Positions 9,775-45,425 of a stretch of DNA of 60,247 bases are shown here, one piece after another (positions within the stretch are counted from its first letter, which is position 1; each line of letters starts with the position of its first letter). Under the pieces are notes generated by a model. The model ran no database searches. It was given only the letters and a program-made list of their open reading frames with translations, and was not told the DNA's origin. The position numbers were made by a program, and so were the translations under genes. The stretch comes from a virus (lineage: Duplodnaviria; Caudoviricetes), in IMG/VR virus record IMGVR_UViG_3300030380_004437, positions 1 to 60,247 of that record; one strand, given 5' to 3'.

Positions 9775-10683
9775 TTATGCTCCTGGGGAACCGTACATTC
9801 CTCTCCAGTCACTAAATCCGAAAGAATATCTTTCTCTAGCTTTGTATCGAACATTACCAGTTTCAAAATCACCTTCCATTCCAGTAGTCATTGCAGCTCT
9901 TTCGAAGTGCTTCATACCGTTAGGAGAGTCAGTTTTGATAAAGAATGCGTCAGCATCTGTTAAGTAATGGTTCACTACATAACCTTCAGGTAACATACCC
10001 ATATTTCTCAATGAGTTTATGTCATTGTCAGAAGTACCTACTCTACCAGGAGAGTTTAGTATTCTGTCAGCAACAAACTGTAACTGAGGAGGTATGATTA
10101 ACTTTCTAGCTTGAACGTTGACTTTAATGCCTCTTTCATCTTTAAAAGCAGCAATATCAATCATCGCATTTTCTAGCGAAGTTTCATTCAGGTCAGCAGC
10201 TGTGCTTGGTTCATTAGACTGATCACCTGCACTTAGTGTAGGGTGGTCAGTAGTTAATAATGGTTTTCCGTCGCCTCCTGGGAAGGAAGTTGAGAAAGCA
10301 TTATTAAGAACATTCGCAGCTTTGACTTGTTTAGTAGTCGCCATTGAACGTGCTAAAGCTTTAGTGTATCTTGAAGAAAGAGAATCGTAGAGATTATCTT
10401 CGATTGCTTCTTCTGTCAACGCAAAAGCTAACGCAACAGTTTCGTGAGAGTATCTAGAAGTGAAAGTTTCTTGTGCTGTGTCGTATGTCACTGCTGCACC
10501 TTCTCCTTTAGTCGGAGCTTGTGCGAAACCAGATAACATTACTTCTTCTTCGAAAGCTCTTTCCGAAGTTTCAGTATCGAAAATTTCAGCATGTTCATTT
10601 TCAAATCTGTTATACTCTAAACCAAAAAGTGCATTCAGTCCAGGTTCGAGTTCTTTAACTAATTGAGCTCTGTTTATAGCCAT
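9775..10683 (-). CDS. Major capsid protein (HK97 fold, Mu gpT-like)
   Basis: MAINRAQLVKELEPGLNALFGLEY...LIIPPQL...KARERYSFGFSDWRGMYGSPG; position after scaffold; strong terminator. Confidence 0.9.
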   Translation of the reverse strand: MAINRAQLVKELEPGLNALFGLEYNRFENEHAEIFDTETSERAFEEEVMLSGFAQAPTKGEGAAVTYDTAQETFTSRYSHETVALAFALTEEAIEDNLYDSLSSRYTKALARSMATTKQVKAANVLNNAFSTSFPGGDGKPLLTTDHPTLSAGDQSNEPSTAADLNETSLENAMIDIAAFKDERGIKVNVQARKLIIPPQLQFVADRILNSPGRVGTSDNDINSLRNMGMLPEGYVVNHYLTDADAFFIKTDSPNGMKHFERAAMTTGMEGDFETGNVRYKARERYSFGFSDWRGMYGSPGA

Positions 10684-17953: not shown

Positions 17954-18330
17954 TTTTCTTTATTGAGTATCTTACGTATCTTTTCTGCTTTTTCATCAGC
18001 TGTGTCTGCGTGTAGTTCGCTATCTACAACTTTCTCTAATTTTAAGTATGGTATTCTCTCATTCGGTACGTACCTCCATGTGTAGCCTTCTTCACCATAT
18101 ACACCAAAGACAGTTTGATTTAAACCTATTTTTATTATCATTGCAGTTTGGTCTTCTAGCAATACTTTATCACCTTCATCAAACGGTGAAAATAATCTAA
18201 AGAATAGACCTTTCATAAAACTTACTGCGTAATCTTTTACAGCTAGACCAAGAAGCATGGTCAGTAAGAAACCGATAAACTGTATATAGAAGTCGTTTAA
18301 CTCTATTTCAAACATGGTCATGTCGTACAT
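17950..18330 (-). CDS. Small membrane protein resembling MscS TM3/beta domain
   Basis: TM helix followed by PFDEGDKVLL...IIKIGLNQTVF...YVPN. Confidence 0.5.
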   Translation of the reverse strand: MYDMTMFEIELNDFYIQFIGFLLTMLLGLAVKDYAVSFMKGLFFRLFSPFDEGDKVLLEDQTAMIIKIGLNQTVFGVYGEEGYTWRYVPNERIPYLKLEKVVDSELHADTADEKAEKIRKILNKEK

Positions 18331-19193
18331 TAGTCATCAGAAAAATACTTTCTCAATCTTTTCAAGTTTTGTTCTAATTTGTACGGATCCATTCTTTCTG
18401 CTACCTCATCAATAATTTTGTCGTCTATTTTTCCCGTAGATTTTCTTATTTTCATGAGATCATCATTTAATACAATCATCCTTTGGATAGGTTGGTCTAC
18501 ACCTGTGCCTTTCGTCATATTGAATATTAAAGAACCTACTCCTTGTTTCTGTAGGGCAGCACTTATTTGAGGATCAAAGTTTTTAGGGAAATACATCATA
18601 TTTGGATTTTCCATAAAATTCGTTATGTCTCTAGCTTGAAACTGTGACGGTGTGACTGATTCTATACGAGCATTTTTCCCAGGTTTCATATTTTTAAGCA
18701 TGGTTGCTATACCAAAGGGTAAGTTTTCTACATCATACATACCTTTAGTGTTGACGTCTACAGTGTACACTTTACCAAATTTTTTGCCTCTGTTTGCATA
18801 TGCAGCTGCATCTGTAAAATCGTCGGTGAGATATACTCCGCCTCTTTGCATTGATGGGTTAAGTACGTTTGGCATGCCTTCTACTTGTTTGGTAAGTTTT
18901 GTTATACCTTGGTTGAGTGAACCATGGAGCATGGGCTTTGCTTCATTCAATATAAATTTACCTGCTCCTTTAATGGGTGCTGCTGCAGGAATAACTTCAA
19001 AACCTGCAAGAACCTGATCGCCTAGCGACGCATCAGGTGATAACGTCATGTATGAATAACCAGGAATGAGAGAAGCCAGACCTTCTAGTTTATTTAATCC
19101 TCTGTATGATTTCCTTGGGTCAATGCCTAAGTATTCTTCAAGTGCTAATGCTACCCTGTCTTTTCTGGTTGGTTTGGTTCCCACTACTGCCAT
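18330..19193 (-). CDS. Hypothetical protein with possible ADP-ribosyltransferase-like (ART-PolyVal-like) domain
   Basis: LHGS...GGVYLTDD...AAAYA...GKVYTVDV pattern. Confidence 0.4.
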   Translation of the reverse strand: MAVVGTKPTRKDRVALALEEYLGIDPRKSYRGLNKLEGLASLIPGYSYMTLSPDASLGDQVLAGFEVIPAAAPIKGAGKFILNEAKPMLHGSLNQGITKLTKQVEGMPNVLNPSMQRGGVYLTDDFTDAAAYANRGKKFGKVYTVDVNTKGMYDVENLPFGIATMLKNMKPGKNARIESVTPSQFQARDITNFMENPNMMYFPKNFDPQISAALQKQGVGSLIFNMTKGTGVDQPIQRMIVLNDDLMKIRKSTGKIDDKIIDEVAERMDPYKLEQNLKRLRKYFSDD

Positions 19194-19251
19194 AATTCAA
19201 AAGTAGAAAAATTTTGCAAAAAAATTTTTACAACATCTTCTATAACGTCGA

Positions 19252-19280
19252 ATGATATAGGGTATATGGGGAAAAGTAAA
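19252..19280 (-). promoter_or_regulatory. Class I promoter for the morphogenesis operon
   Basis: TTTACT-N17-TATCAT upstream of ATG 19193. Confidence 0.5.
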
Positions 19281-19312
19281 TCTGTACTTAAATGTGACTT
19301 AAAATCCTACAT

Positions 19313-19327
19313 GGGTGGGTGGGAGGG
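19313..19327 (+). other. Potential G-quadruplex GGGTGGGTGGGAGGG
   Basis: Four G3 tracts with 1-nt loops in an AT-rich genome; related copy at 19943-19962. Confidence 0.6.
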
Positions 19328-19449
19328 TGCAGGCACGCTATAAGGGGGGTAGCCCCCTAGTATAAGTTAAGTAAAAAGTAAAGGCATTTTTTCCTATATA
19401 ACTATAAGTTATTTACTTATATACTTTTAAATATACTTATTATTTACTA

Positions 19450-19477
19450 TTTACTTTTAAGTTAATAAGCGTATTAT
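19450..19477 (+). promoter_or_regulatory. Class I promoter (TTTACT-N16-TATTAT)
   Basis: Same architecture as 20064-20091; precedes paralogous gene. Confidence 0.7.
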
Positions 19478-19541
19478 AAACGTATTAGCTTAATTATTAA
19501 CCCTTTAAATTTAGCTAATTTAATTAACTAAAGGGCTTACT

Positions 19542-19745
19542 AAGGTACTTAAAATAGCTACTAAGTATAACTTAAACGCTAAAATAGTACTAGGTAATAC
19601 GGCTAAACTAGGCGAGAAAAACTCGGCTAAGTACAAAAGCTGGGTAGGTAAAACGGTTAAAGAAGTTTTTACTACTGGGCAAGGTACGGTTGATATAACC
19701 TATGCTATTAAAGTGGGCGGTATAAAACCTGTCCCTACCGAATAA
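19542..19745 (+). CDS. Small-domain family paralogue 1, no ATG (AAG at the homologous start position, or ATA 19554)
   Basis: KVLKIATKYNLNAKIVLGNTAKLGEKNSAKYKSWVGKTVKEVFTTGQGTVDITYAIKVGGIKPVPTE*; clearly homologous to 20155-20364; in-frame TAA at 19521; AAAGGG RBS, promoter and hairpin retained. Confidence 0.7.
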   Translation, partial: KVLKIATKYNLNAKIVLGNTAKLGEKNSAKYKSWVGKTVKEVFTTGQGTVDITYAIKVGGIKPVPTE

Positions 19746-19760
19746 AACGGTTTTAGTAAC

Positions 19761-19784
19761 GGCTAGGGGGTAAAACCCCTAGCC
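19761..19784 (+). terminator. Hairpin after paralogue 1
   Basis: GGCTAGGGG-GTAAAA-CCCCTAGCC; weak U-tract. Confidence 0.6.
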
Positions 19785-19810
19785 CTATTACTATATAAAG
19801 AACATACGAG

Positions 19811-19929
19811 CATCCGAACAACCATCTTTCTAAGATCTGCTAGCAGATCTGAATTGCGTGGCACATGCTTCATGTATTGGGGGCAGACGTTTTGATCTTT
19901 GTGTGTGTGTCATGCGATCTGATCTGATG
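19811..19929. repeat. SATS-dense block 1
   Basis: 11 GATC/CATG/CATC/GATG tetramers counted, plus (GT)5. Confidence 0.8.
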
Positions 19930-20063
19930 TGTTATCTACTTTGGGTGGGTGGGTGGTGAGGGAGCCGTATTATACCTTACATTTACTTTGGGGTAAAGCT
20001 TTTGATTTACTTATAACTTTTTATTATACCGTATAGCTAGAACTTATATACTTAACTTTCCGC

Positions 20064-20091
20064 TTTACTTTCATATTTATTAGCGTATTAT
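20064..20091 (+). promoter_or_regulatory. Class I promoter (TTTACT-N16-TATTAT)
   Basis: GCTTTACTTTCATATT is identical to the upstream part of the minus-strand promoter at 20915-20943. Confidence 0.75.
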
Positions 20092-20154
20092 ATACCTAAT
20101 GTTTAGTTATTAACCCTTTAAATTAAACATTTCCGACTAATAAAGGGTACTATA

Positions 20155-20364
20155 ATGGTGATTAAAATTAGTACTAAATACGATCTTAACGCTAAAATAG
20201 TTTTAGGTAGTAATATAGGACGCCTTGGTGAAAAAAACTCAGCTAAATACAAAAGCTGGGCTAATAAAACCGTAGCGGAAATATTCAAAACGGGTCAAGG
20301 ATCTGTTGACATTACCTACGCTATTAAGGTAAAAGGTATTCAAGAAGTACCTTCAGCTAAGTAA
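20155..20364 (+). CDS. Small-domain family paralogue 2
   Basis: RBS AAAGGG, own promoter and terminator; homologous to 19542-19745. Confidence 0.8.
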   Translation: MVIKISTKYDLNAKIVLGSNIGRLGEKNSAKYKSWANKTVAEIFKTGQGSVDITYAIKVKGIQEVPSAK

Positions 20365-20375
20365 GGCTGGGAACT

Positions 20376-20407
20376 GAGGGGGTGTAAAGCCCCCTCTCTT
20401 CTTTTTT
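20376..20407 (+). terminator. Intrinsic terminator
   Basis: GAGGGGG-TGTAAAG-CCCCCTC followed by TCTTCTTTTTT. Confidence 0.8.
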
Positions 20408-20419
20408 ACTACCCACGTC

Positions 20420-20576
20420 GATCCGATCGTGGTACGTGGTATTCTCTCTCTCAATGCGATCTGATCTGAAATGGTTATTGTAGTTGTAGTTGTGGTTGTT
20501 GTAATTATATAGGGGGAAGATGTTTTGATCTTGGGGGCACGGATTTTGATTTGACAATCCTTATGCCGATCCGATC
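20420..20576. repeat. SATS-dense block 2 with (TC)n and (TTGTAG)n-like tracts
   Basis: GATC pairs 5 bp apart at 20420/20425, 20458/20463, 20568/20573; lies between two convergent terminators. Confidence 0.75.
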
Positions 20577-20590
20577 TGAAGCAGGTATAT

Positions 20591-20618
20591 AAGAAGAGGG
20601 GCACTCTTCAGCACCCCT
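20591..20618 (-). terminator. Terminator of paralogue 3
   Basis: Minus strand AGGGGTGCT-GAAG-AGTGCCCCT followed by CTTCTT. Confidence 0.6.
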
Positions 20619-20632
20619 AATCTCATTCCCAG

Positions 20633-20866
20633 TTATTTAAAAGTCAGGAATCCACACTTTAGATCATAGACCAAGTCCGCCATTACTACAAGTCTTGGTT
20701 TAAGATCAAGAGCCTCTTGAGGCGTCTTCCCATTAAGTATAGGTTGACGCTCTGCGTTGTGCACAGCTCTTGGCGTTTTACTAGTTGCCACTAGTTCACG
20801 ATCCATATTTTCACGAACATAAGCGTTATTTATAACGATCGGTTTAGTTAAGTTTTTAGTAGTCAC
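20633..20866 (-). CDS. Small-domain family paralogue 3
   Basis: GTG start with AAGGAGG RBS; HNAER...GKTPQEAL...DLVYDLKCGFL. Confidence 0.75.
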   Translation of the reverse strand: MTTKNLTKPIVINNAYVRENMDRELVATSKTPRAVHNAERQPILNGKTPQEALDLKPRLVVMADLVYDLKCGFLTFK

Positions 20867-20914
20867 AATGACCCTCCTTAATTAATAGCTAAAACCATTT
20901 TTAACTATTTATAT

Positions 20915-20943
20915 AGTATAGCTAAGAACAATATGAAAGTAAA
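20915..20943 (-). promoter_or_regulatory. Class I promoter (TTTACT-N17-TATACT)
   Basis: Read directly; upstream of paralogue 3. Confidence 0.8.
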
Positions 20944-20968
20944 GCTAGATGTAAAGTTATTTAACGAA

Positions 20969-21177
20969 GATCACATCGTGTACTACACGTAGATCACAGT
21001 GCCATGGCACATGGTTCATGGGTATGTGTGTGTGTAACCCAGTTCGGATTGTGATGGGGGAAGATGTTTTGACGATGAACTCTGGACCATGGACCTAGAT
21101 CTGATCTGATTTCCGATCGCATGTGGTTCCTGGACCATGGGATTGTGATCGGGTGCCATGATTTGATGATTGTGATC
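20969..21177. repeat. SATS-dense block 3
   Basis: About 19 SATS tetramers, several at 10-11-bp spacing; GATCTGATCTGAT and (TG)n. Confidence 0.8.
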
Positions 21178-21371
21178 CTATTGCCCTATTGACGATTGTC
21201 CATAATTCATGGTTCTTTGTCCTTTCCTCAAGTATTTTGTGCCTTGTGTCAGAGTCCGTGGTTTCCTGGTTTCTTATATAGGGTCTAGAATACCTGTAAA
21301 TCATACTGCAATTATCTTTCCCATGCTTTATCTGCACCATGCACCACGACCCAAACACCACCCATTCTCAC

Positions 21372-21476
21372 CCTATTACCAAGAAACAGCCAATAGGTCG
21401 CTAATAGGGTAGCCAATAGGTCAAGAAAAGCGATGTACATCAGTGCTTCTAGACTCATGCCTATTAGCGTATTAGC
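21372..21476. repeat. GCYAATAGG iteron-like cluster A
   Basis: Direct copies at 21389, 21400, 21412; inverted copies at 21460 and 21469. Confidence 0.65.
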
Positions 21477-21528
21477 AAATCAGAGATATTTTAAGAAAAA
21501 TGTTTTATAAAATTGGTGAGATAATAAT

Positions 21529-21601
21529 AAGAAAGTGGTGTGAGAGAGTATTAACCCTAACTCCCTCACACCGTCACAGACAATTTGGGAGGGTCTGTGA
21601 C
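21529..21601 (-). terminator. Tandem hairpins ending the early minus-strand cluster
   Basis: GTCACAGAC...GTCTGTGAC (21573-21601) and GGTGTGAG...CTCACACC, followed on the minus strand by CTTTCTT. Confidence 0.6.
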
Positions 21602-21614
21602 TAGCTACTAAAAC

Positions 21615-31353: not shown

Positions 31354-31644
31354 TTAGTGAAGACTGTCTTCTTCGTCTCTAAAATCAGTTCCGAAATGAT
31401 AACTCAAAGCAAGATCCATTGCGGAATGCATCACCTCTCTTAAATTATCTTCTTCAAATACATGACCACTTGGTACAGTGGTTTCAAAAAAATCTATAGC
31501 TGATTGAACAGCAGCAAATAAAAATGCTGCAGGCACCACGCTATCTGGTGCTTCTATATTTTCTGATATGTGTTTTGACTCTTCGACAAGAAGCCGAGCT
31601 AACTCTTCAGTTAGCTCAGACATCTCGTCGAAAGTCATAGCCAT
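31354..31644 (-). CDS. Acidic hypothetical protein
   Basis: TAATG coupled. Confidence 0.6.
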   Translation of the reverse strand: MAMTFDEMSELTEELARLLVEESKHISENIEAPDSVVPAAFLFAAVQSAIDFFETTVPSGHVFEEDNLREVMHSAMDLALSYHFGTDFRDEEDSLH

Positions 31645-32672
31645 TATGCAGCTTTGGCATACTCCAGAGCTTTTGATATAGCTTTCTGCTTAAGTGATGC
31701 ACGACTACCAAACCACGCATTATGTAATGCTGCGTCTCTGTCATGACCCCACTTATGATCAACTATAAAAGTGACAGCATTAGCAGCACCCCACCAAGTA
31801 CCCTTAGAGGACTTGAGGTTAGCTCCTGGCTGTTCTTCTAAAGCTTGATGTACCATTGCTGGTACACGCTTAAACTCATCAACCATTGATTGACGTGTTG
31901 CTATAGCTTTTATATCACTCATTTGCTCCATATTCTTTTGCTGTTCCAATAATTCTGGTTGAAATAGCTCAGATATATATGATACTACATTTTGTGACGT
32001 ATAGTTCTTAGAACTTAAGAACTCGGCAGACTCTTTAAAGTCTTTCATACGATCACCAGCGATACCTAGTGCTTCCTCTGCAGACTTAAATACATCCGCA
32101 TCAAGAGCCGTTAAATGAGGCATCTTAAATGAAGGTCTAGTCTTATCTGCTAAAGCATAGGTAAGAGTGTTGTTACAAACTACCCTAATAGGTGTAAACC
32201 TAATCTCGTTAGCTTTGCCCCACTTATGAGATACAGAAACTAGTAAATAACCTAGTACTCTGTCATCTCCAGGAAGCGTAAAACCATCATTGATTTTAGC
32301 TAAGCCCCAGACTTGTTCACCACCTTTTAAGGCACCAGCTGTATCCATCGACATATCGCCTACGCTAGTAAATTTCTCAAAAAATTTAAAAGCGTCAGCA
32401 TTTTGTGACGGTACAAACTTTGGACCACAAGGACCAAAGGTTTTGTTATCACTATCTCTTACTAGAACGTAATAATCATTAACAGGTATAACCTCTTTAC
32501 TATTATCTACGCTTGGCTCAGAGTGTGTGAATAAATGCCTTTTACTTACTGTCCAATCAAGTCCAGCAGCAACAAGCATTTCATCAGGGGTAAGGTTATC
32601 TTCAACCTTAACACCTAATCCGTGCCAGGGAACTTCCCCAGCATAAGCCATTGTTTCTACGGCATGTGCCAT
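31644..32672 (-). CDS. DUF932/DUF945 family protein
   Basis: MAHAVETMAYAGEVPWHGLG...AGLDWTV...TAGALKGG...FTPIRVVCNNTL. Confidence 0.85.
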   Translation of the reverse strand: MAHAVETMAYAGEVPWHGLGVKVEDNLTPDEMLVAAGLDWTVSKRHLFTHSEPSVDNSKEVIPVNDYYVLVRDSDNKTFGPCGPKFVPSQNADAFKFFEKFTSVGDMSMDTAGALKGGEQVWGLAKINDGFTLPGDDRVLGYLLVSVSHKWGKANEIRFTPIRVVCNNTLTYALADKTRPSFKMPHLTALDADVFKSAEEALGIAGDRMKDFKESAEFLSSKNYTSQNVVSYISELFQPELLEQQKNMEQMSDIKAIATRQSMVDEFKRVPAMVHQALEEQPGANLKSSKGTWWGAANAVTFIVDHKWGHDRDAALHNAWFGSRASLKQKAISKALEYAKAA

Positions 32673-33132: not shown

Positions 33133-33355
33133 CTATCACCTCTATATCTGCTGTAGTTTCTATCACAACTCTAGCACCACAGGGCAGGATGGGTTTATCA
33201 TTACCCCCATACCTGACTGTGCTTTCCCCTAAAATTTTAACTGCGTGACAGTAAGTATTGTTCTTTCCTTCTTTTATAGTAATGACTGGCTCGTCAGTGC
33301 CGTGTTTCAAATTAGCTTTTATTTTGTGTTGATTCACGTGAATGTATTTCTTCAT
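33113..33355 (-). CDS. Conserved phage hypothetical protein
   Basis: IHVNQHKIKAN...PVITIK...CGARVVIET. Confidence 0.65.
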   Translation of the reverse strand: MKKYIHVNQHKIKANLKHGTDEPVITIKEGKNNTYCHAVKILGESTVRYGGNDKPILPCGARVVIETTADIEVIDDQCKE

Positions 33356-33578: not shown

Positions 33579-33858
33579 TTTTACTTTTTATGAGTCGTAT
33601 ACCATTTTCCCTGAGCCATCCTCTCAATACATCATTATGTATATCTGGATATCTTTCTTTGACTTTTTTGCAGACCTCATTATATACTCTTAAACCCTTG
33701 TAGTAATCACTATGTCCTAACCTGCACATACGAATTATTTGCCATACCCTCTGTTTTGTAATTTTATATTTCATACCTATCTCCTCTAAAGTAGCATCAG
33801 AATTTTTGTATATCATATAGATATTGAAGTACATTCTTTTTTTATCTTGCCGTTTCAT
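33538..33858 (-). CDS. Stand-alone sigma70 region 4-like HTH protein
   Basis: TLEEIGMKYKITKQRVWQI vs sigma70 r4.2 TLEEVGKQFDVTRERIRQI. Confidence 0.65.
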   Translation of the reverse strand: MKRQDKKRMYFNIYMIYKNSDATLEEIGMKYKITKQRVWQIIRMCRLGHSDYYKGLRVYNEVCKKVKERYPDIHNDVLRGWLRENGIRLIKSKNGSEISTSNNKLV

Positions 33859-34264
33859 TTGTTATGTTCTCCCTCAAAGAAGTGCTAGAAAATTCATGTT
33901 GTCTAGAGTTATAATAAATTTCTTTATTAGAGCATGAGTTATTAAACTCTGTCCAACCAGTAAATGCTTTTCCTTTATATTCCTCCCCTATTATTCTTAT
34001 ATCCCACCTTACCATATTCAGTAGGTTCAATAAATCTTGCTCTGTTTCATAACAAATTATTTCGTCCACATATCTACAACCTTTTAATTGTATTTGTCTT
34101 TCTATCAAACTTTGCACAGGTTTATTTTTATTTGATCTTTCTACGCTAGGGTCAGTGTGTAGTCCTACAATTAAATAGTCACAGACACCTTTAGCTTCTT
34201 CTAACATAGCAACATGTCCTGCGTGCAATAAATCAAAAGCACTAAATGTTATACCTATCTTCAT
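33842..34264 (-). CDS. HIGH-motif cytidylyltransferase (TagD-like glycerol-3-phosphate cytidylyltransferase family)
   Basis: FSAFDLLHAGH...LIVGL...KPVQSLIER...VDEI...SSTSLR. Confidence 0.85.
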   Translation of the reverse strand: MKIGITFSAFDLLHAGHVAMLEEAKGVCDYLIVGLHTDPSVERSNKNKPVQSLIERQIQLKGCRYVDEIICYETEQDLLNLLNMVRWDIRIIGEEYKGKAFTGWTEFNNSCSNKEIYYNSRQHEFSSTSLRENITNETAR

Positions 34265-36132
34265 TTAAAATAATCTTTATAATTTTCTATCTCTCCCCAG
34301 CTCTTACCTATCTCAGCATCTACTTTATTAGGTACATTGATTTTTACACAGTCTCTCATAACCTCTATGACTTTTTCACATTCCTGTTTATCTTTAACAG
34401 ATATATTTAACTCGTCATGCACTTGAGTATGTGCGAGTATGCCTTCTTTGTGTAAATCTAACATAGCTTTTTTAGTCATGTCTGCTGCTGACCCTTGTAT
34501 AAGTCGATTCATAGCTTTATATGTAAAAGCCCTTTTAAGCCCTTTTCCATACGTTTCGAGGGCTTTTTCGTAGGGGTAAGGGGTATCCCTATACGACATA
34601 GGTTCGTAAAGGTTAAAGCGACACTTACGTCCTAGGATAGTCTTTATATAACCCCTATTTGACCCTAACCTAGCACAAGTATCTCGTAGACCACGGATAA
34701 AAGGTACTCGTTCATGATACTGATCAAATAGTATTTGACCCTCTTCTTCACTAATACCTAATTGACGTATGAGTTTATCTTTACCCATACCATAACTCAA
34801 ACCTAGATTTATATTCTTAGCTTCCTTACGACTTATATTAGCCATGTCTGCTACTATCTGATGAAAGTCTGCATCATCTGTGTAAGCATCTGCTGCCTCT
34901 TGTGCACCCTCTTGTTTAGTAAGTAGCGAGTAATGTACTGTAAGTCTAGGCTCTTGTTGAGAGTAATCAAAACAACCCCAGTGACAGTCTTCTTCTGGTA
35001 TAAATAAACTTCTTATCAAACTACCTATTTCTGGATCACGAGCTGGTACTTGTTGTAGGTTAGGATTGCTACAACTAAACCTTCCTGTGACTGTACCTCC
35101 ATCATCTGACCTTAAGGGGTGTAGTTCTCCATGTATTCTACCGTCTACCTCATGGTCTAAAATCATTTTATCTATAAAAGTAGTTCTAGCTTTATTGAAT
35201 TTTCTAGCCCTAGCTATCGCTAATGGTAATTTATGGTCATGTGCCTCTAGCCAAGCAGAAGTAAAACTCGGTGCATTTAGTTTTGGTGATCTAGGATAAT
35301 CTAAACCAGCTCTATCAAATACTTGTGCGACTGATGCTGCTGCCCATAAGTCAGGGGTAATACCATACCAATTTTTTATTTGACTTAATATCTTTTGTTC
35401 TTTACTCTTTAACTCCTGACTAACTCTATCAGCTTTATCTAAATCGACTCTTACACCACGTCTCCTCATCTCTATAAGTACCCTTATTAAAGATGATTCT
35501 AGTTTATATATTTCACTAACCTCTTCTTCTTTTATTTTTTCTTTTAAATTTTGCCATAACCTGTAGGTAAGGTCAGCGTCTTGCTCACCATACATGCCAA
35601 CATATTTAGGCTCTAATTTATACATCTCTGATTTAGGGTTTAGCCCAAATGCTTCTGCTGCCTCTGTTAAAAGTTTTTCATCTTTTAATTCACCCATAAA
35701 CCTTTCGCCTAAACTATTGAGAGAGTATCTCCTTTCATTTTCATTTAATAAAGGTGCAGCAATCATAGTGTCTTGTACAGTACCATTAACAGTAAAGCCC
35801 TCATAAGTAAGCCACCCTAAATCATACTGTGCGTTATGAAATACTTTATCGTTGTCATGCTCTAACTGTTTAGCTAACCATTTATAAACTACTCCTCTAT
35901 CTAGATTAGCCCCATAATGATGAGCCACAGGGAAATAACCTTTCCAACCTTCTGTAGCTATACCTACTCCAATTATTTCTCCTTGCTTACAAGCCCAGCT
36001 CGGACCATGAGTCATGAGTAATGGGTCTCTAGTTTCTAAATCAATAGCTATCTCTTTAGCTTGTGTTAAATCAGGGAAACTATCTGGGGGTGTCCAGTCG
36101 GACTCAGGTGGAAAGAAACTTTTTTGATCCAT
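34261..36132 (-). CDS. polA: Family A DNA polymerase with 3'-5' exonuclease
   Basis: IAIDLET, HNAQYD; TGRFSCSNPNLQQ, DYSQQEPR, KNINLGLSYG, IQGSAAD, VHDE. Confidence 0.95.
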   Translation of the reverse strand: MDQKSFFPPESDWTPPDSFPDLTQAKEIAIDLETRDPLLMTHGPSWACKQGEIIGVGIATEGWKGYFPVAHHYGANLDRGVVYKWLAKQLEHDNDKVFHNAQYDLGWLTYEGFTVNGTVQDTMIAAPLLNENERRYSLNSLGERFMGELKDEKLLTEAAEAFGLNPKSEMYKLEPKYVGMYGEQDADLTYRLWQNLKEKIKEEEVSEIYKLESSLIRVLIEMRRRGVRVDLDKADRVSQELKSKEQKILSQIKNWYGITPDLWAAASVAQVFDRAGLDYPRSPKLNAPSFTSAWLEAHDHKLPLAIARARKFNKARTTFIDKMILDHEVDGRIHGELHPLRSDDGGTVTGRFSCSNPNLQQVPARDPEIGSLIRSLFIPEEDCHWGCFDYSQQEPRLTVHYSLLTKQEGAQEAADAYTDDADFHQIVADMANISRKEAKNINLGLSYGMGKDKLIRQLGISEEEGQILFDQYHERVPFIRGLRDTCARLGSNRGYIKTILGRKCRFNLYEPMSYRDTPYPYEKALETYGKGLKRAFTYKAMNRLIQGSAADMTKKAMLDLHKEGILAHTQVHDELNISVKDKQECEKVIEVMRDCVKINVPNKVDAEIGKSWGEIENYKDYFK

Positions 36133-36437
36133 TACTTACCGATATACTCTTTTCGGTTAGTCATGTGACCTTCTACTAATAACAAGTATCTCCTTAAATC
36201 CTGTATATCATCTAATATACCTGTAGAACTAGGGTCATCTGCTATAGTTTTAAATATGTCGTAGCCGTTCTTTTTACATTGATTTTCTATCCTATCAAAT
36301 TTTCTAGCTAACATCATAAATGCACCAACACCACCACGAGAACGCCAACTATCACCATAACTTATTTGGGCTTCCTCTAGCTTTTCTACATCAGTGTGTG
36401 CTAGTAGTTTTATTAAATTAAAATTAGATCCACTCAT
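36132..36437 (-). CDS. Nmad1/DUF1599-like all-alpha protein (possible nucleotide pyrophosphatase fold)
   Basis: YGDSW...ARKFDRIEN...DDIQDLRRY; located in the modification cluster. Confidence 0.6.
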   Translation of the reverse strand: MSGSNFNLIKLLAHTDVEKLEEAQISYGDSWRSRGGVGAFMMLARKFDRIENQCKKNGYDIFKTIADDPSSTGILDDIQDLRRYLLLVEGHMTNRKEYIGK

Positions 36438-36439
36438 AA

Positions 36440-37126
36440 TTAATACTCCTCATATTTTTCTCTGCACATATTCTGCTTACCGAAATAACACCACTTACAC
36501 TTCCACTTAGAAGGTTTAGCAGGAAACTCTGTAGCTTCTGTCATTTCTACAGCTCTTATGTGTATTTTATCTCTTTTGATATTTATACTCTCTTGAGTAT
36601 AAATGTATCTATCTATCTTACCATGATCTAAATACCACATTTCCGTGATAATTTTTTCTAACTCAGGGTATCTCTTTAAAGCTATTCCTCCATATAATTC
36701 ACATTGTTCTTTATGTGCATCTTGATTACCTTCATATCTACCTGTTTTAAAATCAATGACTCTAGCTTCTGTTGAGTTTCCTTCGTCATAGACGAAAGCA
36801 TCTACTTTAGCCCTGCCCCAAGTATCATTATCAAACCAACCTGTTTGATCCCAATCTTTAGTTATAGCCCAGTCACTCTCACATGTTACCTGACCATATT
36901 CATGTAGTTCTTTTAATTTTACAAACGCTTCTTCAAACTCTTTGAGTTCTTTAGGTAGTTCATCAAACCTACCACGAATATATTCCTCGCATAATTTATG
37001 CATATCTTTACCACGATCCATGGCAGGACTTCCAGGCTCTTTCATTTTCTTTATAAATTTAAACTCAGCTTGTTTAGGACACTTCTCGTAACAACTAAGA
37101 CGACTATACGACCATTGACCAATCAT
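36440..37126 (-). CDS. Cas4/RecB-like PD-(D/E)XK exonuclease
   Basis: WSYSRL..YEKCP...RG..MH...KVD...IDFKTG...Q.ELY...CKWC...C. Confidence 0.85.
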   Translation of the reverse strand: MIGQWSYSRLSCYEKCPKQAEFKFIKKMKEPGSPAMDRGKDMHKLCEEYIRGRFDELPKELKEFEEAFVKLKELHEYGQVTCESDWAITKDWDQTGWFDNDTWGRAKVDAFVYDEGNSTEARVIDFKTGRYEGNQDAHKEQCELYGGIALKRYPELEKIITEMWYLDHGKIDRYIYTQESINIKRDKIHIRAVEMTEATEFPAKPSKWKCKWCYFGKQNMCREKYEEY

Positions 37127-37138
37127 AGATTCTCCTAT

Positions 37139-38188
37139 TTATTTTATTCTTCTAGATAGCCATCTAAAGCAAGCTTCCATCCAATCATCAGCTTTACAAT
37201 GTTGTATTTCTATAAGTGCTTCTTCCTTACTCTCCTCTTTAGAGAGATACCAAGCATCTTGTATAGGTACTGCGACGTCAGTGAAAAATGGATCTTTGAA
37301 TTCCATTTGCTGAAAAGGTTTTCTAGTAAAAAACATAATTAAGTCTGCTTCCCAATCACGAAAGTCTACACTTACCATTGGATAGGGATTTACTTCATCT
37401 AGTTTATACGGATTGTGATTAATTAATAGCTTTATTGTGTAATAATCAAAAGAGTCTATTTGTAGTAATTTTTCTCTCATAGGCTCATATACATTTAAGT
37501 ACGCATGATAATTATTACTCACTTGATAATACTTACCCATTCTTATACCTGTTGCTGCAGCTACGAACTCATGTAACATTGACATGTGTACCACGTTTGC
37601 TCCATATGCACCCCAGATAATATCATTTGACCTATTTGATACTGTCATATCGAGACGAGGACTGTAGCCGTCTATGTGTACAGTTTTAAAGTATATAGTC
37701 GTATTACAGGGTACGTCAGCTCCATCTCGCCCTAAATCGCCCACAGCGTCCCACATTTGTAGGACACAGCGTCTATCGTAAGGGTCGTGTTTAAGTCTAT
37801 CAATAATAATTCTTACTTGGTCTTTACCAGCAAAATCTTTAAATATAGGGTCTTTGAAATAACTTCTCCATCTCCAGCCATACGCTCCCCACAATGTTTC
37901 ACCATCATCACTATATCTACTCATACCTTTATTGTAGTACTCCATGGTAGCTAAGTCATTAAAACCAGCCAGCATCCATAAACCTTCCATAAAATGGAAA
38001 AAGGGGTTAGCGTCTCTATCTGGGTCAAATAAAACTCTCTCGCTAGGGTTAGCATAAACTGTAGTAACTGGTTCTTCTACAGTGATGACTTTACCGTTTC
38101 TAGTATTTTCTATATGACCATTCGAGTCAAGTAAATCCATACCTCTTAAAAAGGCATCGTTTACATTTCTACAGTTTAATGTGTGCAT
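37139..38188 (-). CDS. Thymidylate synthase-fold dUMP hydroxymethylase (5-hmdU synthesis)
   Basis: Catalytic DVPCN; RSNDIIWGAYGAN (Asn implies dUMP specificity); NPFFHFMEGLWMLAG and GAYGWRWR as in YuA/M6-type enzymes; clustered with a 5-hmdU DNA kinase. Confidence 0.8.
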   Translation of the reverse strand: MHTLNCRNVNDAFLRGMDLLDSNGHIENTRNGKVITVEEPVTTVYANPSERVLFDPDRDANPFFHFMEGLWMLAGFNDLATMEYYNKGMSRYSDDGETLWGAYGWRWRSYFKDPIFKDFAGKDQVRIIIDRLKHDPYDRRCVLQMWDAVGDLGRDGADVPCNTTIYFKTVHIDGYSPRLDMTVSNRSNDIIWGAYGANVVHMSMLHEFVAAATGIRMGKYYQVSNNYHAYLNVYEPMREKLLQIDSFDYYTIKLLINHNPYKLDEVNPYPMVSVDFRDWEADLIMFFTRKPFQQMEFKDPFFTDVAVPIQDAWYLSKEESKEEALIEIQHCKADDWMEACFRWLSRRIK

Positions 38189-38964
38189 TATTCTCCTATT
38201 CCTTCTTTATATGCTTTTTTCCAACCTATGATTACATCCTTACGAGGTAATCCGTTCCAAGCAGTTTTAGTTTGTTTCTCTACTACCTTAACGCATGTAG
38301 GGTGTAAAGAGTGTAATCTTTCAGCACCTTCATTATGAACATCAATAGTTCTCCACTCACTACAACCACCGTCAGCGTTAGATGATTTTTGACCTTGTGC
38401 ATAATAAAAACTTACCTTACATGCTTTACCTTTTCTCAATAGTTGTAAAGCTATATCAAAATCTTCCATTACCCTAGTCCTGCCCCACTCTATGTCATCA
38501 GGAAACTCGTTTAAGTTATAAGCGAGTACTCTCATGTATCGAGTATTTTCTACAGATAAATCTTCTACCCTATTATTACCTTCCCTAGCACTTACACCCA
38601 CGTGGGCATAACCTTGACTAAGCCACTCGTCTAATAAACCAAACATAGCAGGATACTCATCTGACTCTAAGTATCGTAAGTGCCAGTCGGTAGGGCTTTT
38701 ACGAATGTAAAAACGTAAATCATCATCTAGCATAACTATATGGGGGTCATCACTATGCTCTATAATATATTTTCGTTTAGCCCCTATGCCTATACAGTCC
38801 TCTGGGACTACCATTTTAGGTGTGTTTTGATATTTAGTGTACAGGTGTTGCTCATCATGATCAATAACTAATGTTACATCACCATTAGCTTGCATCCATT
38901 GGGGAAACCATTTTAAAGTTTCTTGATTAGTGGGTCTACCACGAGTAGGAATATATATTTTCAT
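38188..38964 (-). CDS. GT-A glycosyltransferase, TET-associated (TAGT)/JGT-like
   Basis: IYIPTRGR, MLDDD (DxD), EDFDIALQLL, GGCS motifs. Confidence 0.75.
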   Translation of the reverse strand: MKIYIPTRGRPTNQETLKWFPQWMQANGDVTLVIDHDEQHLYTKYQNTPKMVVPEDCIGIGAKRKYIIEHSDDPHIVMLDDDLRFYIRKSPTDWHLRYLESDEYPAMFGLLDEWLSQGYAHVGVSAREGNNRVEDLSVENTRYMRVLAYNLNEFPDDIEWGRTRVMEDFDIALQLLRKGKACKVSFYYAQGQKSSNADGGCSEWRTIDVHNEGAERLHSLHPTCVKVVEKQTKTAWNGLPRKDVIIGWKKAYKEGIGE

Positions 38965-39821
38965 AGGTATTGTGCCTCATTAAATTTTGGGTATTTATCG
39001 TATTTATATTTTGCTCTAGGTCTACCCTCACCTAACCTAGTTCTCTCATATTTATCAAACTCACATAAACTGTGCTCTATCTCTCTCATCTCTAGCTTTG
39101 GTACATGTGGCTCTAAGTATTTATCTGCTACTTGTAAAAGTTTATACATCTCTGCGTTCCAGTCATGTTTGTGCGAGTCCCAAGTAAGCGTTCTTAAATT
39201 CATTCTATTTAATCCACGCTTTGCTCCTGGACCTGGATTTGCCCAAGTATAAAGATCACGAGCGTTCCTTAATAAATGAGTGTGTCTTAAATCTGTAACA
39301 ACTTCGTATGACATAAATCCACTAAATCCTGCGTAAGGAAGATAATTTTTCCAAGTATCTTCTAAACTACTAGAGACTATCTCTGGGTGGTTATTATATA
39401 AAGGTGTAAGTATTTTGTCTACTGTTTGTTCTATTTTAGTACCACCTAAAGTACCTGTCAACATATAAGCACCTGTGTAAACTTTTTTCCCACTATCCAT
39501 TCTATCCTGCATTATAGCTTTTACCTTTTCTGGTTGCCAATCCTCAGGGAAACCTATCTCTTCTAGGGTGGATGGCCAATTTATTTGACGAGCCACGGAC
39601 ATTGAGAAAGCTAAGTTAGGGTGGTCAAAGTAAGGCTCTCTCCAGTTTGTTCTTACCCATTCTGTGACTGTGTCTAGTTCTCTAAACACATTACAAAAAC
39701 TATAAGTTTTTAATATCTTATCTTCTGTCCACGGTGGATGAAGACCGTTTTTTCTCCTTAAATATATTTGGTGTCTTTCATTTATGTAGTTAAAAAACCC
39801 TTCTACTTTATCTTGTACCAT
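38961..39821 (-). CDS. 5-hmdU DNA kinase (aGPT-Pplase1 family)
   Basis: ERHQIY.RR..G..PPWTEDKIL..YSFCNVFRELD; FMSYEVVTD; GPGAKRGL; IEHSLCEFDKY. Confidence 0.85.
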   Translation of the reverse strand: MVQDKVEGFFNYINERHQIYLRRKNGLHPPWTEDKILKTYSFCNVFRELDTVTEWVRTNWREPYFDHPNLAFSMSVARQINWPSTLEEIGFPEDWQPEKVKAIMQDRMDSGKKVYTGAYMLTGTLGGTKIEQTVDKILTPLYNNHPEIVSSSLEDTWKNYLPYAGFSGFMSYEVVTDLRHTHLLRNARDLYTWANPGPGAKRGLNRMNLRTLTWDSHKHDWNAEMYKLLQVADKYLEPHVPKLEMREIEHSLCEFDKYERTRLGEGRPRAKYKYDKYPKFNEAQYL

Positions 39822-44843: not shown

Positions 44844-45425
44844 TTATACGCCACTTCTGAAGGTAAGGTTGATTCTCTCTCCACAACCTTCCATATCTAA
44901 TACTGCGTGTGTACTTCTCATTTGAGATTTACCATCAAATATAAAAACGTCGCCATCTTCCATTAAATAATGTGTTAAACTTTTTTTAGGAACATACTTA
45001 GTATTTATTTCACTAGTGTCTACTTTTTCTTTTATATCTTTTTCATACTCAAGCCATTCGAAAACTCTAGGTGCACCAAGAGACACGGACAAAACTATAT
45101 CGTTTTTAGTGGGTACTGTATCAGAATGGTGCGGTATGCCTTTACCTTCTGGTCCATAATATCCACACAAACAAAAATTAAACTTCACTTCTTTTTTTAA
45201 TTTATAACTTACCAAATGTTCAGCGTTTGATTTTATTACATACATAGGAGTAGACCACGGCTCAGGCTCATATAGTTTACCAGCATATTCGAAAGGGCTA
45301 TCGCCAAAGCCACGAGTTGGTCTGCCTACTACTTTTTTGCCTTTATACATGCGAACTCTTGGCTCGTCCCAAGTAGTAATACCACAATCAAAACCTGTAA
45401 ATTCTCCTTTTATAAATTCTATCAT
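44844..45425 (-). CDS. alkB: AlkB-family 2OG-Fe(II) dioxygenase
   Basis: FNFCL..YY...HHSD (HxD)...SVSLGAPRVF...THAV...RINLTFR. Confidence 0.85.
   Translation of the reverse strand: MIEFIKGEFTGFDCGITTWDEPRVRMYKGKKVVGRPTRGFGDSPFEYAGKLYEPEPWSTPMYVIKSNAEHLVSYKLKKEVKFNFCLCGYYGPEGKGIPHHSDTVPTKNDIVLSVSLGAPRVFEWLEYEKDIKEKVDTSEINTKYVPKKSLTHYLMEDGDVFIFDGKSQMRSTHAVLDMEGCGERINLTFRSGV

Follow-up and report, generated by a model that had tools for sequence, protein, structure and literature searches.

An intact phage gene without a canonical start codon: a probable ATA start and a TG/TC-free island that may be kept free of thymidine hypermodification

Results

Two paralogous cassettes between two gene blocks

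The DNA analysed here, referred to as the window, is a complete virus record of 60,247 bp. We assign it to the HTVC023P-type marine podoviruses on the strength of its large terminase, which has 61% identity to the protein of Pelagibacter phage HTVC027P and 60% to that of phage 023Pt_psg01; the phage is present in marine metagenomes from 10 studies. The minus strand carries nearly all genes of the window, and a 2.4-kb gap (19194-21614) separating two minus-strand gene blocks holds two small plus-strand cassettes with the paralogous genes P1 and P2 (Table 1). P2 lies 613 nt downstream of P1, the two proteins are 74.2% identical over 66 aa, and the window holds no other copies. Searches of the whole window with Rfam (gathering thresholds) and ARAGORN returned no RNA family and no tRNA, and a DNA search of the phage collection with 19200-21500 gave 0 matches.

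Table 1. Features of the two cassettes and three thymidine-modification genes (positions in the window)
Feature	Position	Strand	Basis or remark
G-rich tract at the upstream edge of cassette 1; four G3 runs, 1-nt spacers, G-quadruplex-like	19313-19327	+	sequence; kept in related loci
Island with no T-G/T-C on either strand (no TG, TC, CA or GA on the plus strand)	19393-19613		spans promoter, 5' UTR and P1 codons 1-24
P1 sigma-70-like promoter, TTTACT-16-TATTAT	19450-19477	+	same arrangement before P2
15-nt box, exact in P1 and P2 leaders	19496-19510	+	two exact copies; within the window found only here
P1, paralogue of P2 with AAG at the position of P2's ATG	19542-19745	+	
AAG homologous to P2's ATG; also opens the SD-like AAGGT (19542-19546)	19542-19544	+	sequence and alignment
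Most likely translated part of P1: 63 codons from an ATA start, then TAA	19554-19745	+	table-11 ORF; type C ATG; selection
Terminator-like hairpin after P1 (core stem 19761-19784), no clear T run	19754-19793	+	folding
G-quadruplex-like tract before cassette 2, similar to the first	~19937-19956	+	sequence; conserved in relatives
Cassette 2: promoter 20064-20091, P2 CDS, intrinsic terminator 20376-20396	20064-20396	+	sequence
P2 CDS, 69 aa	20155-20364	+	canonical ATG
TS-like gene (dUMP hydroxymethylase candidate)	37139-38188	-	PF00303 1e-22, phrog_5131 8e-113; activity inferred
TAGT-type glycosyltransferase	38188-38964	-	family match
PF18723 protein	38961-39821	-	6.5e-46; 41-43% identical to the YuA gp14 type of M6-like Pseudomonas phages / Yuavirus proteins

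The P1 frame follows a TAA stop (19521-19523) with TTA ACT AAA GGG CTT ACT, reaches AAG, continues through GTA CTT AAA to ATA (19554-19556) and stays open to the TAA at 19743-19745. A preliminary description of this DNA had reported that the ATG of P2 is replaced by AAG in P1 and that no ATG, GTG or TTG lies in frame near the 5' end; direct reading and alignment with P2 bear out both points, the first such codon after the upstream stop being codon 58. ORF calling with ATG, GTG and TTG finds nothing of at least 30 aa on this frame, and calling with table-11 starts yields 19554-19745, 63 aa, from ATA. Equally correct were the statements that many of the differences from P2 are synonymous (pS 0.78 versus pN 0.17) and that GAT (Asp) in P2 is AAC (Asn) in P1, at codon 10, where a third type of the family, type C, likewise has Asn.

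The promoter-like TTTACT-16-TATTAT occupies an equal relative position ahead of P1 and P2, and across relatives its -10 hexamer reads TATTAT, TATAGT, TATAAT or TATCAT, with TA...T always kept. The hairpin after P1 folds with -24.3 kcal/mol (z -3.7), and 0 of 200 shuffles fold as well. The earlier claim that promoter, frame, hairpin and ribosome-binding site are all intact thus stands for the first three, whereas the supposed binding site, AAAGGG, is probably not the one used by P1. Within the 15-nt box, CCCTTTA can pair with TAAAGGG (19529-19535) in a weak predicted 5' UTR hairpin, which for P1 is no better than shuffles and shows no covariation because all copies are identical there. The box also has what we take to be a resemblance to T3-type promoters; as a promoter for a phage single-subunit RNA polymerase it was set aside, Pfam having found no RNA polymerase family among 30 scanned ORFs, including the five largest. 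Type C genomes have a single cassette, whose 5' flank matches the P1 flank of the window (81%) and whose 3' flank matches the DNA after P2 (72-74%). Thus, one-cassette genomes have an ATG, and two-cassette genomes have an ATG on P2 and a non-canonical start on P1.

Several further elements were observed around the cassettes. The first gene of the terminase operon (18330-19193, minus strand) has a sub-threshold match to ART-PolyVal, an ADP-ribosyltransferase family (E 0.009, 17 bits, cut-off 31). A 77-aa ORF at 20633-20866 (minus strand), also present in type C loci, has a strong AAGGAGG site, its own terminator-like hairpin (20597-20618) and no Pfam family. A GTT/GTA-rich low-complexity repeat at 20474-20522 reaches a depth of up to ~49,000 in short contigs from RNA runs, which we take to be those of other organisms. 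Repeats of the type GATCTGATCTGA, and a G5-purine-rich word with GTTTTGA after it, lie near 19877, 20513 and 21057.

An orphan protein family

P1, P2 and type C form an orphan family of three types restricted to this phage group. P1 and P2 match no Pfam or PHROGs family at a meaningful E-value; sequence searches gave a best E of 1.3 against the PDB and no usable match in the ESM Atlas, Foldseek against the PDB returned nothing at E <= 0.001, and tblastn of the type C protein against the phage collection gave chance-level matches only (E at least 0.02). A profile search of 1.8 billion representatives returned five matches, one of them real: P0004, a further relative from a cluster of 19 members with up to 396 contigs per member and contigs of up to 62.7 kb. 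Three long proteins among the matches were taken as spurious; two of them were scanned, of which one (P0005) is a PKD-like repeat protein and the other (P0006) has sub-threshold, scattered Pfam matches. The AlphaFold model (pLDDT 75.8) consists of a strand, four short helices and a strand, with residues 1-6 below pLDDT 50. The VIA structure matches are weak (best Z 4.7), and many winged-helix domains are among those with Z 2.7-4.7. On the basis of these models, a role for the family as a small DNA-binding regulator is a reasonable guess, and no more.

From a collection of 5.8 billion proteins the P1 type is absent save for one truncated 53-aa call, pointing to a blind spot of gene callers. Two short ENA contigs carry variants. 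On one of 523 nt, a P1-type protein of 53 aa (P0003) is called from a Met at codon 15, the position of ATA 19584 in the window; this variant seems to have gained a canonical start deeper in the gene. On the other, of 573 nt, an 86-aa protein (P0008) has the first 20 residues of P2 followed by unrelated sequence and is a frameshifted or rearranged P2 variant of one assembly.

P1 evolves as an intact gene

The AAG and the ATA at codon 5 are identical in 7 of 7 other P1 contigs (L005, L006, L007, L009, L011, L012 and L013). These came from searches of IMG/VR and metagenome contigs, some may be one sample filed in two collections, and together with the window they represent five distinct haplotypes. 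A DNA-run contig from another study (X6; Logan) covering 19403-19820 has 4 differences from the window, 0 of them at 19542-19556. Base 19543, which the preliminary description had wanted confirmed, is thus the same in the other contigs. The P1 carriers are 95.5-98.5% identical in protein.

Among the five haplotypes, all of which lack a canonical start, 18 codons vary, with 14 synonymous and 5 nonsynonymous nucleotide differences, the latter in 4 codons. With a synonymous share of ~23-30% expected at random, this excess has a binomial p of 5e-6 to 1e-4 (kappa 1-8). Leaving out L011 as possibly recombinant, since its codons 38-41 look type-C-like, the counts are 9 and 3 (p 2e-4 to 2e-3). Pairwise dN/dS is ~0.1, and it is 0.22-0.27 against type C. 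Indels and stops are absent from P1 in all haplotypes, whereas the non-coding DNA just upstream is full of indels in the same contigs. Recombination with ATG-bearing alleles could have brought in some of the synonymous excess. These patterns support the conclusion that P1 is an intact gene under purifying selection despite the loss of its canonical start; the neutral divergence that had been named as the sign of a pseudogene is not seen, neither between P1 and P2 nor among the haplotypes.

ATA 19554 is the favored start

Type C, a sister lineage found in hundreds of contigs, informs the choice of start. In the P1 alignment it has ATA as codon 1 and ATG as codon 5, which aligns with ATA 19554 (L014, L015 and L016), and in the P0004 cluster 15 of the 15 sequences listed start with MATKY. 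Of the two candidates originally offered, AAG and ATA 19554, the comparison with orthologues thus favors the second and makes the first less likely. AAGGT (19542-19546) lies 7 nt before ATA 19554 and AAGG 8 nt before it, and AAGG is found 6-8 nt upstream of the ATG in several genes of the phage, e.g. 9775-10683 and 31644-32672. By parsimony with P2 as the outgroup, the ancestor would have had ATG at codon 1, which was then replaced twice, by ATA in type C and by AAG in the window clade, where the T-to-A change at 19543 gave rise to AAGGT as well. Codons 2-4 of P1 have remained near those of P2 (9/12 nt), GTG to GTA being synonymous and ATT to CTT a conservative change from Ile to Leu.

In E. 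coli, according to the accessible text of a preprint (10.1101/063800), AUA is one of four near-cognate codons and initiates at 0.02-3% of AUG depending on the construct, and a tested sample of other codons gave 0.01-0.2% of AUG. AAG is outside that close sample of 12 codons and belongs to a group of 57 codons at 0.1-1% in the sfGFP screen of all 64 codons (10.1101/063800, same text). Judging from the sequence and its relatives, P1 most likely initiates at ATA 19554 via AAGGT rather than at AAG 19542. Residues 1-6 of the longer frame may be dispensable because the model has pLDDT <50 there. RNA support consists of X17, one low-depth contig from an RNA library (19587-19762) that may be DNA carry-over and says nothing for or against transcription; P1 is outside the coverage of the RNA contigs X16 and X18.

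A promoter-centered island without T-G or T-C

No T-G/T-C site starts within 19393-19613, where ~51 are expected. The longest site-free gaps in the window are this one of 222 nt and two of 60 and 51 nt, also in cassette 1; outside the cassette the longest is 42 nt. Counting TG/CA alone, the free stretch is 19385-19634 (249 nt), again the longest of the window, the runner-up being 76 nt. In 200-nt windows across the genome, T-G/T-C sites average 45.8 (sd 6.9), and the three lowest windows all fall inside the two cassettes: 0 at 19393-19592, 13 at 20012-20211 (the P2 promoter and start) and 15 at 19594-19793, with 23 as the next value. Over cassette 1 (19340-19800), the strand-symmetric odds are 0.18 for CA/TG and 0.16 for GA/TC, compared with 1.04 and 0.94 for the window, and none of the other dinucleotide pairs is below 0.67. 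In cassette 2 the depletion is merely ~2-fold. The preliminary remarks on the TG in all standard start codons and on the swap of GAT (Asp) for AAC (Asn) therefore pointed at an avoidance that is strong, specific and effective on both strands, but a reading in terms of TG alone was too narrow: 6 TG remain in the 3' half of P1, and the avoided set is TG plus TC. A RIP-like CpA-to-TpA bias was rejected as a cause: T-C/G-A is depleted equally, and the effect is confined to the cassette, neither of which such a bias would account for.

The depletion extends into synonymous sites and the terminator. In a codon simulation that held the protein fixed and drew synonymous codons from phage usage (20,000 draws), codons 2-24 of P1 have 0 sites versus 8.5 expected (0/20,000 draws as low) and the 3' part of P1 has 15 versus 23.9 (17/20,000); the corresponding values are 0 versus 7.5 for type C (1/20,000) and 6 versus 11.1 for P2 (602/20,000). 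Residues 1-24 of P1 include no Asp, Glu, His, Gln, Cys, Trp or Met, and the island stops at Glu25 (GAG), before which every residue has a codon free of such a site. Among the table-11 starts, ATA and ATT alone are free of T-G/T-C, whereas ATG, GTG, TTG, CTG and ATC each contain one. All 10 related loci have the island, although its upstream third is highly divergent between them; in the window clade its runs measure 222-258 nt. The type C locus L015 has a single T-G/T-C site in 227 nt, contributed by the TG of its start codon ATG. Avoidance of ATG is therefore not absolute, since type C keeps this codon inside its island.

Sites for GATC show a different local pattern, with 25 in 19834-21174 (1.34 kb; 18.6 per kb, compared with 2.7 per kb for the window) and 0 in 19017-19833; because GATC has T-C on both strands, the avoided context is unusually frequent in the DNA flanking the bare island.

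Candidate genes for thymidine modification in the window and in other phages

A candidate modification gene set lies at 33842-39821 and 44844-45425. In addition to the TS-like, glycosyltransferase and PF18723 genes of Table 1, it comprises a cytidylyltransferase-like gene, DNA polymerase A, a PD-(D/E)XK nuclease and a 2OG-Fe(II) oxygenase; the TS-like gene and the PF18723 protein adjoin the DNA polymerase. A search of the whole 60-kb record at E <= 1 gave no match to the P-loop 5-hmdU DNA kinase family PF18748, which gp13 of phage YuA matches at 8e-18; a divergent P-loop kinase in the record is conceivable. In place of a detected P-loop kinase the phage has a TAGT-type glycosyltransferase, and its chemistry may therefore differ from that of M6 and ViI.

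Two small controls agree with a link between the island and modification. In the complete relative 023Pt_psg01, base composition and site density equal those of the window; it lacks PF18723, and its 9 kb of syntenic sequence contains no island (minimum 29 per 200 nt). A 36-kb contig of the window clade carries PF18723. Across the first 50 kb of YuA (L017) there is no strong island (minimum 32 per 200 nt, mean 50.9). The poorest T-G/T-C windows in that part of YuA, 506-705 and 33146-33345, adjoin its two annotated sigma-70 promoters, which have clear -35 and -10 elements; this coincidence is only a hint because these are AT-rich intergenic regions in a genome of 64% GC.

Restriction-resistant sites in phages M6, ViI and phiW-14 share TG or TC, and in the text accessible to us the authors propose that the 5-hmdU DNA kinase prefers TG/TC, mentioning unpublished kinase data for TG (PMC6449724). 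From the accessible parts of the two papers, the modification motifs were not known in 2018 (PMC5889632), and TG/TC was inferred indirectly in 2019 (PMC6449724). The pair avoided in the island is exactly the context proposed in that text for M6, ViI and phiW-14 (PMC6449724). In clades V, VIII and IX of HTVC023P-type phages, TS is paired with "aGPT-PPlase1", as stated in the accessible portion of PMC9599517. The excerpts returned by a search of the open-access literature contain no description of a modification-escaping island in a hypermodified phage genome.

Discussion

Our results are consistent with a model in which P1 is a live gene that starts at ATA 19554 and in which its cassette has been selected against T-G/T-C in a way that keeps ~220 bp free of thymine adducts, a reading that we hold with moderate confidence. 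In this model, P1 would encode an orphan-family protein of ~63 aa whose fold weakly resembles a winged helix, and the gene would have a sigma-70-type promoter and a terminating hairpin of its own. The ancestral ATG, kept in P2, would have become AAG, the T-to-A change at the same time making AAGGT 7 nt before ATA 19554, and ribosomes starting at this near-cognate codon would give a low protein level. Selection would minimize T-G/T-C across the whole cassette as far as the protein permits. T-G and T-C are the contexts in which the hypermodification is thought to be installed, and ~220 bp around the promoter and gene start would thereby lack bulky thymine adducts. In genomes with two cassettes, P2 would combine a canonical ATG with a relaxed island and P1 would have the strict one. 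We infer that the ATA is used, which context is modified in this phage and that unmodified DNA is needed, TG/TC being taken as the modified context of the window phage by analogy with the restriction-resistance patterns of other phages. The original suggestion that the ATG was given up so that the gene stays unmodified is supported in its DNA part, by the T-G/T-C depletion and the thymidine-hypermodification genes, and is weakened in its proposal of AAG as the start.

Some observations do not sit easily with this model. The E. coli figures predict that ATA functions at a few % of the ATG level, yet selection on the protein looks strong, and E. coli may not represent the host; the closeness of P1 codons 2-4 to P2 would fit translation from AAG as well. 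Speaking against the link to modification are the failure to detect PF18748, the ATG inside the type C island and the lack of a comparable island in the kinase-bearing YuA.

We weighed three readings in which P1 is not a gene started at ATA. The same bases in seven other contigs and in X6 from another study mean that the AAG is no sequencing error, and an error of sequencing or assembly at 19543 is accordingly exceedingly improbable. P1 could instead be a young pseudogene that lost its start, with P2 covering the function and a decay too recent to show: the canonical start is absent, a redundant ATG-bearing paralogue lies close by, and, because all carriers are closely related, a single inherited lesion is possible. 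Looking for relaxed selection, frame disruptions and signal decay in P1, we found none of these hallmarks. The 14 synonymous versus 5 nonsynonymous differences among carriers, a P1 without indels next to non-coding DNA full of them, a -10 element that varies yet keeps its invariant positions, and a synonymous codon choice that still avoids T-G/T-C make this reading improbable. A start at AAG 19542 with AAAGGG (19530-19535) as the ribosome-binding site, giving a 67-aa protein, would draw on the homology of AAAGGG and its 6-nt spacing to the arrangement in P2 and on codons 2-4 that are still P2-like. We regard it as quite improbable, given that AAG is not one of the four near-cognates and that, in the accessible text (10.1101/063800), the E. 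coli screen of all 64 codons places it in its lowest class, that type C leaves these codons untranslated and has diverged there, that AAAGGG is able to pair with the conserved upstream box and that the N-terminal 6 residues are modeled as disordered.

A further reading accepts the ATA start and regards it as a neutral or dosage change after duplication, with a cause of the island unrelated to DNA modification, such as DNA shape, a protein-binding platform, avoidance of host-nuclease motifs or avoidance of start codons on both strands. The weak start in two-copy genomes and the ATG in one-copy genomes are in agreement with a dosage change, and the absence of a detected kinase and of such islands in YuA fits a cause other than modification. 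Against this stand the specificity of the depletion for the two dinucleotides reported as the modified context, on both strands, and its reach into synonymous sites and the terminator, while start-codon avoidance would leave the depletion of T-C/G-A unexplained. We therefore consider this reading unlikely.

Going beyond the model of a live gene started at ATA, we tentatively view the cassette as a "hypermodification-free island" maintained by selection, the phage equivalent of a CpG island, for the sake of which ATG was traded for ATA; we stop short of regarding this as probable. The T-G/T-C-free state is complete over ~220 bp and goes as far as the protein allows over ~460 bp, and the thymine-decorating machinery of the phage would leave the island bare because no island thymine precedes G or C on either strand. 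If this is true, the T-G/T-C recognition context with which an abundant group of marine phages hypermodifies thymidine can be read from the sequence alone, and unmodified DNA is required for some DNA transaction at this place, for instance use of the promoter on an incoming genome or binding of the winged-helix-like protein encoded there. On the question of which thymines such phages decorate, and whether any DNA must stay bare, the locus gives a prediction from sequence that can be tested by modification mapping. P1 would also be a natural case in which a constraint on the DNA, rather than on the mRNA or the protein, may dictate the choice of initiation codon.

Among known systems, the hypermodification of M6, ViI and phiW-14, as described in the accessible portions of PMC5889632, PMC8989533 and PMC6449724, is similar in that a TS-like gene and a PF18723 gene lie next to the polymerase and that the TG/TC avoided here is the context proposed there; unlike those phages, the window phage has no detected P-loop kinase and has a TAGT-type glycosyltransferase. 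With the HTVC023P-type pelagiphages it shares a gene pair of the TS and aGPT-PPlase1 type (accessible portion of PMC9599517). Pseudogenes that arose by loss of the start codon resemble P1 in lacking a canonical start that a paralogue retains, whereas P1 differs from them in its mainly synonymous polymorphism, intact frame and preserved regulatory signals. The textbook near-cognate start is the AUU of E. coli infC, and AUA, AUU, AUC and CUG are all table-11 starts. As in such genes, P1 is intact and under selection without ATG, GTG or TTG, it has an SD-like site at normal spacing before the AUA, and its orthologues have ATG at the same codon; unlike infC, the proposed reason in P1 is a constraint on the DNA, the avoidance of T-G/T-C, rather than IF3 autoregulation, and the start has been read from the sequence. 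Finally, phage genomes avoid restriction sites and vertebrate genomes have unmethylated CpG islands. The cassette would share with both a local, promoter-centered absence of the context needed by a DNA-modifying or DNA-cutting activity. In contrast to both, the window phage would be avoiding the context of its own protective modification, and the avoided element would be a dinucleotide, with an avoidance limited to a cassette of ~460 bp and strong enough to shape codons, amino acids and the start codon. Thus, by analogy with these systems, the near-cognate start and the motif avoidance of P1 would be of known kinds, and a modification-free island would be the bolder reading.
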